From positions 19,643,855 through 19,707,854 of the forward strand of contig NC_079880.1 of NCBI RefSeq assembly GCF_029227915.1: a DNA stretch of 64,000 nucleotides. The letters run 5' to 3'. This document shows, one piece after another, positions 34,801-37,800 of this stretch. The notes below the pieces were generated by a model that searched no databases, had not been told where the DNA came from, and worked only from the letters and a program-made list of their open reading frames with translations. Numbering within the stretch: position 1 is the stretch's first letter; each line of letters begins with the position of its first letter. The DNA comes from Hydractinia symbiolongicarpus (Eukaryota). The translations under genes and the position numbers were made by a program.

Positions 34801-37800
34801 CTAATTGACTTCCCAATATAATCTGAATACAGCCCTATGAAACAAATTACTGAAGCAAGCAGAAAGAAATATAACAAAAAAGTCCTGGTTTTCATTTCCT
34901 TTTTTATTTTAAGTAAATCAGGTTTTTAAACAGGGGTTGGTAAATTGCATGGCATAAACATCTATATTATAATACTGGTAAACATCTGTCTCTCACGCAA
35001 AATGACACTGCAAATATAGTAAGATGGGTTCACTGCATTATAAAAAGGACAAGCCAACTAGTAGATTTTTTCATGGGCCACCAAATAGTTGATCAAATTT
35101 ATACCCTTTGTACACCAATTCTATTATGGCACCAAACATTGTTTTTTTACTTACAATTTATGTCATGATTTAATATGTACACCGTAAAAGCTTATTTTAA
35201 GCACACTGCCACAAAATTTGTCCTCTGAATGTTCTTACTTTTCATTGCTTGAGAAAAGTACTTTTCGTTGAGTTGAACTAAGAGTGTTTATGTGTTTATG
35301 TTAAATAATGCTTGTCTAGCATAATAGAAAATTCAAAAAGTAAAAAAGAGTTAAAAATTAACATGATTCAAATAAACATCTATTTGGAAAAAAAACTTTA
35401 ACAACGAAGACCATTTGTATATGCATATATATTGAACTTGTTTGAACTTTGTACATTAGAATAGCAGTCGTACATCCATTTCAAAAGTGCTAAAAAGTGG
35501 AGTTTTTAAGGGCATTTAAAAACATGGTCTACGTTATTAAACAAAAATTCCAGTCAAGTTTATTTATTTTTGTTCTTTGTACACAAAAATTTACTTACTG
35601 CACTTTATTATTAGAGAGAACAACCGTTACACTTAAACATCTAGAATTCACAAAACTTCGATAAACTGTCTTGAAATGCGAGAGATATTGCCGTTTATAC
35701 TCATCCGTAAAAGTTAGGATAGTGTTGATCTAAGTAACAAAAACAATAAAAAGAGTAAATAAAGCAAAAATTGACAAAAGCTCATATGTAATTCTTACAG
35801 AGTGGTTTTGTTAACTCCAGTAAAAATGGTATGCGTACTAAGGGCAAAATGTATACTTTAGTTAAATAGGTATTTTCTCTGAACAGCCCCTACTGTATTT
35901 TGGGTAAATGATTATTTTTATCACCTCAATTACAAGTAATTTATGCTTTGTCATAGCAACAATCAAATTTGTTTGGTAATTTGGCATACTTCCTTCCCCT
36001 CTTTGCACATTTTTTAAAAGATAGGAAATTTATCAATATGGTACAAAATTAAAGTTTTTTTCAAACCTGTTTTCGTTCAGCTGTGAATGGCCCAAAATAG
36101 TGATCAATGTTCTTCATAACACCCTCATTGCCCTCTTCTAGGTTCTATAGATAAAAACAACAGAATAGAAGGTCATGCAGTTAAATCATGCCAGTAAATG
36201 TCTTGATCAAAACCTGCATGGCCAATAGCAAGAGTCAACGACGTTTACAACTTAGTTTACGATGTGTCCCCAAGTTTAAAATGTTAAGTATGCAGACATG
36301 GGAAAAAATTAAAAAAAAGAGTAAATAATTAAACCTACCCAGAATTTATCTGTAATAATGGAAACGTTTTGCAAAATGTTTTCCTCATTAAAAGATTCCA
36401 CAAGAGAATATAAGTCTCCATCGGACTTGTGAAGAATGATGGTGCTATCTTCGCAGTGATATTTACACATGAATGCAATTAACGATGACATTTGTAGAAT
36501 CTAACAAAAATAATTAACAGTAAGAGCTATCTATATTATAATTTTTTCTAAAACCTAAATTTTCATAAAAATTACGACACATTTTATTTTTAACATGTTT
36601 CGACTTTACCAAAGTCATCATCAGAATATTATACAAAAGTTGATACATACACTCTTTATACAAAAATTTTTTCGAAAGTTATTTAAATATTTCCCAAAAG
36701 TACAATTCATATGAATTATACACAAGCTAATCCATGTTGACAAAATAATATTAGATAAACTAACAAAAGTTAGTTAAATAAAATTTATATACACCTTTTC
36801 AACTTTGTATGATAACTTTTCGTACTTACGTAAGTCTCCGACTGTAAGCTGTCCGTTATACTTGTGCGCTTTTGTTAGTTTATCTAATATTATTTTGTCA
36901 ACATGGATTAGCTTGTGTATAATTCATATAAATTGTACTTTTGGGAAATATTTAAATAACTTTCGAAAAAATTTTTGTATAAAGAGTGTATGTATCAACT
37001 TTTGTATAATACTCTGAAGATGACTTTGGTAAAGTCGAAACATGTTAAAAATAAAACGTGTCGTAATTTTTATGAAAATACTTTGCAATCTTGTGTTGCT
37101 ACGAAGTTTTGGAAATATAATATTTGATATTGCGCACAAGTATAACGGACAGCTTACAGTCGGAGACTTACGTAAGTACGAAAAGTTATCATACAAAGTT
37201 GAAAAGGTGTATATAAATTTTATTTAACTAACTTTTGTTAGTTTATCTAATATTATTTTGTCAACATGAATTAGATTGTGTATAATTCATATAAATTGTA
37301 CTTTTGGGAAATATTTAAATAACTTTCGAAAAAATTTTTGTATAAAGAGTGTATGTATCAACTTTTGTATAATACTCTGAAGATGACTTTGGTAAAGTCG
37401 AAACATGTTAAAAATAAAACGTGTCGTAATTTTTATGAAAATACTTTGCAATCTTGTGTTGCTACGAAGTTTTGAAAACCTAAATTCATTTTTGGAGGGA
37501 AAAAATTTTTTTTAAATGTTTTTACTTTTTAAAACATTTTAAAACATAGTAAGAGTAAAATCTGATACTTAATAATGGATCAAATAATAATAAAACTGGA
37601 TTAATGTACCAAGAGAAATCAGTTTGAATAAAGATTGAAAGTATATTTAAAATTCAAATAATGGAGATCTACATCATCGATTGTCATTTCAACATGGAAT
37701 CAACACACTGCCTAAAAAATGTTTATTTCAAAAATAATATTTGACAGTATAAAACAAGATGGTCACAATGTGCTGACGTCAGCAGTAGGATCAAGCCTAG

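Follow-up and report, generated by a model that had tools for sequence, protein, structure and literature searches.

[quoted passage not shown] PLE insertions in the rotifer Adineta vaga have an inverted pseudo-LTR that is shorter by 37 bp, a 31-bp tail, target-site duplications (TSDs) of 8–10 bp and, where the pseudo-LTR starts at its 5' end, a palindrome (Arkhipova 2013). The PLE enzyme PAc has been demonstrated in vitro to cut and extend both DNA strands, with a preference for AT-rich ATT sites, and to start reverse transcription from two internal sites, the spacing of which defines the tail (Frangieh 2024). The PAc ORF starts at stem II, and the cut site is 26 nt after the start codon (Frangieh 2024).

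The minimal hammerheads of PLEs are recognized by a G10.1-C11.1 pair, a long helix II, a short helix I and a palindrome at 15.2–16.2 (Cervera and de la Pena 2014). In cnidarian genomes, minimal hammerheads of the PLE type number in the thousands, and retrozyme repeats of 220–350 bp are also present. Retrozymes have been proposed to be non-autonomous derivatives of PLEs, and in vertebrates they are depleted from introns.

Here we investigate an insert in a 64,000-nt stretch of the genome of Hydractinia symbiolongicarpus (GCF_029227915.1, contig NC_079880.1, 19,643,855–19,707,854, forward strand), referred to as the window. The insert is 913 bp (36562–37474) and is located between two exact copies of the 12-mer AAAACCTAAATT. 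A first-pass annotation had described it as a foldback element with nested inverted and direct arms, and all of the repeats that it described are present, as is the flanking 12-mer. The insert consists of three copies of one 363-nt unit, which together explain all 913 bp. Its features are as follows.

36550–36561, no strand: left TSD copy, AAAACCTAAATT (two-occurrence search and site-pair test)
36559–36869, minus strand: segment 1, the inverted copy, reverse complement of unit positions 21–331 (repeat search and alignment)
36869–37111, plus strand: segment 2, a direct copy of unit positions 121–363, pseudo-LTR plus tail (direct repeat D1, spacing 363)
37080–37111, with a second copy at 37443–37474, plus strand: 32-nt tail, ACTTTGCAATCTTGTGTTGCTACGAAGTTTTG (alignment)
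37112–37474, plus strand: segment 3, the complete 363-nt unit (repeat search and alignment), made up of a 20-nt segment (37112–37131), a 100-nt core (37132–37231), a 211-nt arm (37232–37442) and the 32-nt tail (37443–37474)
37226–37243, plus strand: 18-nt palindrome AACTAAC-TTTT-GTTAGTT at the 5' edge of the repeated arm (fold and alignment)
37475–37486, no strand: right TSD copy, AAAACCTAAATT (one of only two occurrences in 64 kb)

The interior of the insert is a 1.67-copy tandem of the unit with one head-to-head inverted copy, and it is not symmetric. Segment 1 has neither the first 20 nt nor the 32-nt 3' tail of the unit; segment 2 is 5' truncated, the first 120 nt of the unit being missing. 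The two overlap by 1 nt, the C at 36869, at the head-to-head junction. Inverted repeat I1 (36559–36869 versus 37132–37442) is 311 nt at 98% identity, and all 6 of its differences fall within the 211-nt arm. Inverted repeat I2 (36559–36769 versus 36869–37079) is 211 nt, also at 98%. Direct repeat D1 pairs 36869–37120 with 37232–37483 at a spacing of 363 nt, and within it the arm and tail have 2 differences in 243 nt. The core, annotated as about 100 bp and present in both orientations, is indeed found as two copies (36770–36869 and 37132–37231) that are identical at 100 of 100 positions. The 20-nt segment between the first forward arm and the second core (37112–37131) is unique.

The reverse arm had been estimated at about 250 bp. 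It measures 211 nt, which is 32 nt shorter than the forward arms. The 32-nt tail follows each of the direct arms but is missing from the inverted copy, and of the two ends of the insert only the right one has it. Since the reverse arm is without the last 32 nt of the forward arms, the two termini of the insert are not inverted repeats of one another. Likewise, the outermost bases are not complementary, because the 32 nt at the right end have no counterpart on the left. The 18-nt palindrome is more stable than any of 200 shuffles (z = -3.8); it has a mirror copy at 36758–36775, and segment 2 starts at the palindrome centre.

The prediction that the region would form a long hairpin is borne out by folding. 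The hairpin is 311 bp, and as single-stranded DNA the region reaches -352 kcal/mol, against -82 +/- 7 for shuffles (z = -41). The mirror-image ORFs that start MYDNFSYLRKSPTVSCPLYLCA are artefacts of the symmetry, as had been suspected; they begin in the two inverted copies of the core and have no homologue. Nothing relevant was reported by Tandem Repeats Finder, and neither that program nor the repeat search or alignment found sub-repeats inside the arms.

The 12-mer AAAACCTAAATT occurs only twice in the 64-kb window when both strands are searched. Among 20,000 random pairs of sites in the same window, placed 925 bp apart and compared over 24-nt neighbourhoods, a direct repeat of at least 12 nt was never found and one of at least 9 nt was found 58 times. 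The bracketing 12-mers are a genuine TSD. Its length is 9–12 bp, because the ATT with which the left 12-mer ends may just as well be part of the inverted copy, and it is seen at one copy of the element only. Removal of the insert and one 12-mer leaves an intact intron, and the empty site would read TTTTTTCTAAAACCTAAATTCATTTTTGG. The left flank also has a marginal likeness to the reverse complement of the tail end and 20-nt segment, with 32 of 500 shuffles scoring as high.

Each copy of the unit contains a hammerhead-ribozyme-like core of the PLE minimal type, for which cleavage is predicted from sequence. A small ORF overlaps the core of segment 2.

36576–36624, minus strand: hammerhead-like core of the inverted copy, with the canonical CUGAUGA box (descriptor search and alignment)
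37014–37062, plus strand: hammerhead-like core of segment 2 (descriptor search; helices II and III are present in the unconstrained fold)
37377–37425, plus strand: hammerhead-like core of segment 3, the same as that of segment 2 (descriptor search)
37020–37127, plus strand: ORF of 35 codons, its AUG made up of A9, the extra U and G10.1 (ORF inspection)

The segment 2 core is comprised of CUGAAGA, an extra U, helix II (GACUUU/AAAGUC) and GAAA, in that order. Its continuation can be read in two ways. In the first, the ACAUGU palindrome follows and the predicted cut is after 37046; in the second there is a 7-bp helix III with GUC and the predicted cut is after 37062. The extra U between A9 and G10.1, which makes the AUG, the 6-bp helix II and the ACAUGU directly after GAA are traits of this core, and the CUGANGA and GAAA boxes and the helix II closed by G10.1-C11.1 are present in all three copies. 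The core shares the traits listed for PLE minimal hammerheads by Cervera and de la Pena (2014). The inverted and direct arms differ at four positions, three of which lie within this core, at the tolerated positions N7, 2.2 and 16.5 (G-C to G.U). Helix I is weak; 2–3 bp can be drawn from the flanks, and the unconstrained fold pairs the core instead.

A descriptor (CTGANGA, 0–1 nt, a stem of at least 4 bp, GAAA; both strands) matches four places in the 64 kb, three of which are the copies of the unit. The expectation is 0.07 matches per random 64 kb, or 0.025 with a 6-bp stem, and by chance such a core would occur about 2,500-fold less often than it does here, statistics that were run after the motif had been spotted by eye. 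No match was found in 134 kb of other loci. The Rfam hammerhead models do not match 1.4 kb or 131 nt of this sequence even at E <= 10, and the Rfam search of both returned only sub-threshold miRNA and snoRNA noise.

The 35-codon ORF crosses the hammerhead-like core and the tail and stops inside the 20-nt segment, and under the minimal reading the predicted cut is at nt 27 of the ORF. [quoted passage not shown] Its 35-aa product has no match among 1.84 billion representative proteins.

What kind of event would generate this arrangement? We think it probable that the insert is the product of one PLE-type retrotransposition of a 363-nt non-autonomous unit bearing the hammerhead motif. As in Pen2a_Av of Adineta vaga and Poseidon PAc of Anolis carolinensis, there is a partial tandem with a head-to-head inverted copy that is 5' truncated, a tail of 30–40 nt at one end and a palindrome at the 5' end of the pseudo-LTR. 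The tail of 32 nt, TSD of 9–12 bp and palindrome of 18 nt compare with the values from Adineta vaga given above, and the target is AT-rich with ATT, as for PLE insertions. PLE TSDs vary in length; here there is one, of 9–12 bp. In contrast to PLEs, the whole unit is 363 nt, with 120 nt between the repeats where an ORF of 2.5 kb would lie, and helix III of the core can also be drawn as a stable 7-bp hairpin. The likeness to any PLE rests on layout rather than on sequence relatedness. Because the layout matches that of a single PLE insertion, we would place the insert in an existing class, as an instructive example of it, and not regard it as a novel type.

The unit resembles an animal non-LTR retrozyme or a PLE parasite derived from a pseudo-LTR. 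Metazoan non-LTR retrozymes are likewise tandem low-GC units of 150–450 bp with a type I hammerhead and TSDs of more than 4 bp; they are common in cnidarians, and a dependence on PLEs has been suggested for them (Cervera and de la Pena 2020; Li et al. 2026 preprint). They differ in being long arrays, where here there are 1.67 direct copies and an inverted one, and the minimal PLE-type hammerhead of this insert fails the Rfam models. Unlike the intron-depleted retrozymes of vertebrates, this insert is intronic. A rod-like circular RNA of the retrozyme type is unsupported: the 363-nt monomer folded as a circle gives -62.6 kcal/mol (z = -1.0 versus shuffles), which is not unusually structured, and unlike the circular RNAs of retrozymes it is not predicted to be highly self-paired.

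From the anatomy, the TSD and the hammerhead-like core we infer an enzyme, an RNA template and an order of steps. A PLE reverse transcriptase/GIY-YIG endonuclease from another genomic locus would nick an AT-rich site in the intron at positions 12 nt apart, with the top-strand nick directly after ATT. The bottom-strand 3'-OH would prime cDNA at a distal start site (...GAAGUUUUG) on an RNA that is circular or exceeds one unit in length, and this cDNA would copy 1.67 units, giving segments 3 and 2, before halting at the 18-nt palindrome. The top-strand 3'-OH would prime a second cDNA at a proximal start site 32 nt upstream (...AUGAAAAU), copying 311 nt to give the inverted segment 1. The two cDNA ends would then be joined head to head via the 1-nt overlap, and gap repair would duplicate the 12 nt. 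The three-copy layout needs no further rearrangement. The tail would be one-sided because there are two internal reverse transcription start sites whose spacing equals the tail, as for PAc in vitro. Two alternatives, twin priming of the classic L1 kind and the loss of a left tail after insertion via ATT microhomology, are less economical than two PLE start sites.

The TSD of 12 bp had been called unusual for known foldback families. For a PLE-type insertion it is expected, because TSD length varies in the PLE class, and the apparent anomaly disappears: it is what target-primed reverse transcription would give and not a foldback oddity. PLE-type insertions can pass as foldback elements or MITEs in annotation. 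The both-strand, two-start-site model came from in vitro work on one lizard PLE. If our reading is correct, a single, young and fully resolved insertion of a short, non-autonomous unit with a hammerhead-like motif, in a cnidarian-like genome, provides a compact natural example of both-strand priming and of the two-start-site origin of the tail.

With foldback (FB) transposons and long-TIR MITEs the insert shares long inverted arms, here near-perfect, a hairpin, here highly stable, and a flanking duplication, here exact. The insert might be a foldback or MITE-like DNA transposon with a 100-bp loop, which later lost the left 32 bp and underwent partial duplication or inversion of the core and arm. 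The TSDs of Drosophila FB and Mutator-type elements are 9 bp, with which the 9-bp reading of the TSD here would agree. We consider this origin unlikely. It requires at least two extra rearrangements, yet both 12-mers are intact, and no transposase was found near the insert. It leaves unexplained the 363-bp period, the one-sided tail, the palindrome at the 5' edge of the arm and the hammerhead-like core, and unlike FB elements or long-TIR MITEs the insert has asymmetric termini and arms without sub-repeats. With these termini, a 1.67-copy tandem plus inverted copy and a hammerhead-like core in each copy, the foldback classification of the first-pass annotation is not retained.

Target-primed reverse transcription by LINEs is also known to leave TSDs of variable length, around 12 bp, along with truncated 5' ends and 5' pieces in inverted orientation. 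If a LINE reverse transcriptase had inserted a SINE-like RNA, L1-style twin priming would have caused the inversion and template switching the tandem. This would fit the TSD, the truncation and the inverted piece, and the sole reverse transcriptase fragment in the window looks LINE-like. We nevertheless give this origin a rather small chance. The 3' end lacks a tail of poly(A) or simple repeats, and neither ARAGORN nor Rfam found a tRNA-like head in 36300–37700. A duplication of 211 nt in both orientations is not a usual outcome of twin priming, and 3' ends that are 32 nt apart and a hammerhead-like core are PLE-specific features.

It is improbable, in our view, that the insert represents something new, either a foldback DNA transposon with 12-bp TSDs that carries by coincidence, or has captured, a hammerhead-like motif, or, less radically, the founder of an undescribed cnidarian family of 363-nt PLE parasites with a hammerhead. 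Were the latter true, single insertions of the family would record both-strand priming at two start sites and would lend in vivo support to the dimeric both-strand model, so far an in vitro one.

Least probable is a local replication-based rearrangement of the intron without transposition, by palindrome formation or template switching, with the 12-mers due to chance or microhomology: the element is single-copy in all searched data and its left flank has the weak likeness described above (32 of 500 shuffles), but an exact 12-nt repeat at both boundaries is very unlikely by chance, the intron is intact once the insert and one 12-mer are taken out, and the reading offers no account of the hammerhead-like core.

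Searches for relatives of the unit covered the window, related scaffolds and several databases. A blastn self-search of the window gave noise only, as did sensitive blastn and nhmmer once the element was masked, and no second copy was found in the related scaffolds. Exact look-up of two ORFs of the element gave no match, and a protein search with its 90-aa ORF gave no candidate. A 20-mer from the core had no matches in metagenome scans, nor did scans of viral and prokaryotic genomes find any. The three metagenome matches to an arm 20-mer were resolved by blastn as isolated 20-mer identities in unrelated contigs. A PLE reverse transcriptase/GIY-YIG ORF is absent from the element and from the 64-kb window, as would be expected of a non-autonomous derivative; the link to PLEs is structural only, with the putative 35-aa remnant having no homologue. 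Because no second copy and no PLE enzyme were found, family membership is something we infer.

The insert lies, as annotated, in an intron of the TEP1 gene, and the neighbouring exon is the following.

36336–36500, minus strand: neighbouring exon of the telomerase protein component 1 gene (tblastx to related scaffolds)

The TROVE, DUF4062, NACHT and TEP1 beta-propeller domains identify the host gene as telomerase protein component 1 and not a thioester protein. In 13 scaffolds (mostly TARA) with TEP1 proteins 67–80% identical, neither similar DNA nor an intron that could be aligned was present. A sister taxon is represented by SRR9332381, with 94.7% identity at another locus. On the minus strand the acceptor AG occupies 36502–36501, and the insertion point is 48–60 nt upstream of it. 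The hammerhead-like core of the inverted copy is on the sense strand of the host gene. A 311-bp hairpin and a sense-strand hammerhead-like motif this near a splice acceptor might influence how the telomerase protein component 1 transcript is processed.

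The insert of 913 bp (36562-37474) is bounded by two exact copies of the 12-mer AAAACCTAAATT, at 36550-36561 and 37475-37486, and this sequence has no third occurrence on either strand of the window. When the 24-nt neighbourhoods of random site pairs 925 bp apart were compared (window GC 33%), none of 20,000 had 12 nt or more in common and 58 of 20,000 had 9 nt or more. The 913 bp between the 12-mers are made of three repeats.

Repeats of the insert
36559-36869 and 37132-37442, 311-nt inverted repeat, 98%
36559-36769 and 36869-37079, 211-nt inverted repeat, 98%
36869-37120 and 37232-37483, direct repeat with a spacing of 363

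The first-pass annotation had described a hairpin-forming foldback element with a perfect 12-bp target-site duplication (TSD) at 36550-37486. Its repeat structure and its bracketing by an identical 12-mer are borne out, as is the hairpin: folded as single-stranded DNA, the insert region is predicted at -352 kcal/mol, where shuffles give -82 (z = -41). The mirror-image ORFs are also present. Both open with MYDNFSYLRKSPTVSCPLYLCA, their starts fall in the two inverted core copies, and a protein search found no homologue of either.

Alignment of the three copies derives all 913 bp from a single 363-nt unit, which is complete at 37112-37474.

Parts of the unit, in order
Part 1, 20-nt segment GAAATATAATATTTGATATT
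Part 2, 100-nt core
Part 3, 211-nt arm
Part 4, 32-nt 3' extension (the tail) ACTTTGCAATCTTGTGTTGCTACGAAGTTTTG

Copies of the unit within the insert
36559-36869, segment 1, reverse complement of unit positions 21-331
36869-37111, segment 2, unit positions 121-363, with one C common to segment 1
37112-37474, segment 3, full unit

The same alignment does away with the symmetry of a foldback. The inverted copy has no 32-nt extension, and therefore the two termini do not form an inverted-repeat pair. ATT, the final 3 bases of the left 12-mer, could be part of the inverted copy, which makes the TSD 9-12 bp. The centre of an 18-nt palindrome, AACTAAC-TTTT-GTTAGTT (fold z = -3.8), is the start of segment 2. 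Per 211 nt, the inverted arm differs from the first direct arm at 4 positions and from the second at 6, the two direct arms differ at 2, and the two core copies are identical. These counts fit a single recent event, with each copy then diverging by about 1%.

The insert lies in the minus-strand gene for telomerase protein component 1 (TEP1).

Coding features of the host gene
near 43.3-43.6 kb, minus strand, TROVE exon
33.9-34.2 kb, minus strand, DUF4062
32.1-32.7 kb, minus strand, NACHT P-loop
21-24 kb, minus strand, TEP1 beta-propellers

The gene product is not a thioester-containing protein. Exons at 38627-38493 and 36500-36336 were located by tblastx against related scaffolds, and the acceptor AG of the latter is at 36502-36501; the annotated position within a TEP1 intron thus holds, and the insert accounts for almost half the length of this intron of about 2 kb. 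Its position is 48-60 nt upstream of the acceptor, just past the likely branch point (CTCTTAC) and pyrimidine tract (36501-36526, minus strand), which are spared by about 25-50 nt. The left flank and start of the TSD (36527-36555) weakly resemble the reverse complement of 37106-37131, the tail end and 20-nt segment (TATC-TATATTATAATTTTTTCTAAAAC against TATCAAATATTATATTTCCAAAAC); 32 of 500 shuffles score equally high, and the likeness may be AT-rich chance or target preference.

The layout, tail, palindrome and TSD length match Penelope-like elements (PLEs), and this reading replaces that of a foldback family whose TSD is unusual. PLE insertions are often 5'-truncated, with partial tandems forming a pseudo-LTR (Craig et al. 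2021). A rotifer PLE has two direct pseudo-LTRs and one inverted, the latter 37 bp shorter, with a 9-bp TSD and a 31-bp tail; in that rotifer system pseudo-LTRs carry palindromes at the 5' end, TSDs measure 8-10 bp, and the space between pseudo-LTRs can take up unrelated sequence (Arkhipova et al. 2013). Here the direct repeat is 243 nt (arm and tail), the inverted copy is without the 32-nt tail, the 18-nt palindrome marks the repeat's 5' edge and the TSD is 9-12 bp. TSD length is variable for both LINEs and PLEs. The mobilized sequence is a non-autonomous unit, since it has a 363-nt period and lacks an RT/EN ORF. It resembles the metazoan non-LTR retrozymes, which are low-GC units of 150-450 bp with type I hammerheads and TSDs of >4 bp, are frequent in cnidarians, and are argued in a 2026 preprint to be non-autonomous PLE derivatives. 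Unlike these, the monomer here shows no unusual degree of predicted self-pairing (z = -1.0). We consider it reasonably probable that the insert is a short hammerhead-bearing unit inserted in the PLE manner. Its placing among the PLEs and retrozymes draws on architecture and a motif that curated models do not recognize; no second copy and no enzyme were seen.

Minimal type I hammerhead ribozymes are a feature of PLE pseudo-LTRs. Each arm here contains, in order, CUGA(A/U)GA, an extra U, GACUUU-GGU-AAAGUC and GAAA, with the final A opening an ACAUGU palindrome; alternatively, a 7-bp hairpin, ACAUGUU/AACGUGU, is followed by GUC. A core descriptor (CTGANGA, 0-1 nt, a stem of at least 4 bp with a 3-10-nt loop, GAAA) has four matches on both strands of the whole window, three being the copies in the insert. 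First-order random sequence would give 0.07 per 64 kb, or 0.025 with a 6-bp stem, and about 4 x 10^-4 per 363-nt unit over both strands; 134 kb of other fetched loci had none. The fourth match, at about 21500-21536 (minus strand; CTGAAGA, 4-bp stem, 10-nt loop, GAAA), is within a TEP1 WD40 exon and is probably chance. Three of the four differences between inverted and direct arms are inside the motif, at N7 (U/A), 2.2 (U/C) and 16.5 (U/C), the last retaining a G.U pair. These appear to be tolerated positions, an anecdotal agreement among only three copies. Rfam hammerhead models gave no match to a 131-nt slice even at E <= 10, and helix I has only 2-3 bp; both count against a functional hammerhead, and self-cleavage is putative. 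The sense strand of the host pre-mRNA carries one motif, the CUGAUGA version from the inverted copy, and the remaining two are antisense to the gene.

The A9, extra U and G10.1 of the motif form an AUG at 37020-37022. From it a 35-codon ORF extends across motif and tail to a stop within the 20-nt segment; 20 codons are within the arm, and the tail brings this to about 30. The inverted copy gives MMTLVKSKHVKNKMCRNFYEN as far as the junction. On a minimal reading the cut is predicted after nt 27 of the ORF. In the PLE of Frangieh et al. 2024 the hammerhead cuts 26 nt past the start codon, and two RT start sites deeper in the ORF bound the tail. In the rotifer PLE (Arkhipova et al. 2013) the first 12 codons are in the pseudo-LTR, 22 counting the tail. 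The ORF start here has the arrangement of these two published PLEs, and the ORF is read as the remnant of a PLE ORF start. A protein search detected no homologue of the 35-residue peptide, which is uninformative at such length.

How might such an insert arise? A purified PLE protein cuts and extends both DNA strands, favours AT-rich DNA and an ATT motif, and begins reverse transcribing the RNA from two internal sites without target homology, the stretch between them being the tail (Frangieh et al. 2024). The intron would be nicked at sites 12 nt apart, with the top-strand nick directly after ...AAATT. The bottom strand would prime at the distal site (tail end) and copy 1.67 units of a multimeric or circular RNA, giving segments 3 and 2 and stopping at the palindrome. 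The top strand would prime at the proximal site (arm end), and 311 nt copied from there would form segment 1. The two cDNAs would then be joined head-to-head with a 1-nt overlap, and repair would duplicate the 12 nt. Such both-strand priming would cover every segment without rearrangement after insertion. Equally possible is a jump from one RNA of about 343 nt to another, in which case the 20-nt segment would be located downstream of where reverse transcription usually starts.

Twin priming during a LINE-mediated insertion would follow the same general logic as this PLE-type model, but the insert has neither a 3' tail repeat nor a tRNA head, and 211 nt in both orientations are not a normal duplication product of twin priming. 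A foldback DNA transposon must lose its left terminal 32 bp and gain a partial inverted duplication while the TSD stays intact, and leaves the tandem period, one-sided tail and hammerhead-like core unexplained. A purely local rearrangement would not readily leave an exact 12-mer at each boundary. As a PLE-type insertion, the insert would illustrate both-strand priming cleanly in a natural setting and serve as a caution for annotation.

No second copy of the unit was found within the window or in 13 scaffolds (mostly TARA) with the nearest TEP1 relatives (proteins 67-80% identical). Protein look-ups with the element ORFs gave none, nor did scans of metagenome, viral and prokaryotic collections, where three 20-mer matches were chance.

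Elsewhere in the window, a 176-aa ORF at 61503-62033 (plus strand) combines a reverse-transcriptase domain (RVT_1, E = 1e-14) with a PHD-type zinc finger downstream of it. The motifs GVHQGSVLSPLLF and YVDD look LINE-like, not PLE-like; the ORF is a retrotransposon fragment with no sequence relation to the element. At 13732-15771 (plus strand) an uninterrupted 679-aa ORF has three CUB domains and an LDL-receptor class A repeat. Among named homologues the best is from Hydra vulgaris (45% identity), and a Logan contig of SRR9332381 matches the ORF at 95% in protein and at 94.7% over 2.3 kb of DNA. The DNA thus appears to come from a cnidarian. A long microsatellite, (ATGAATAA)n, of about 72 copies lies inside the TEP1 gene region at 26344-26914 and yields a spurious 284-aa ORF of FIHSFIYL repeats.
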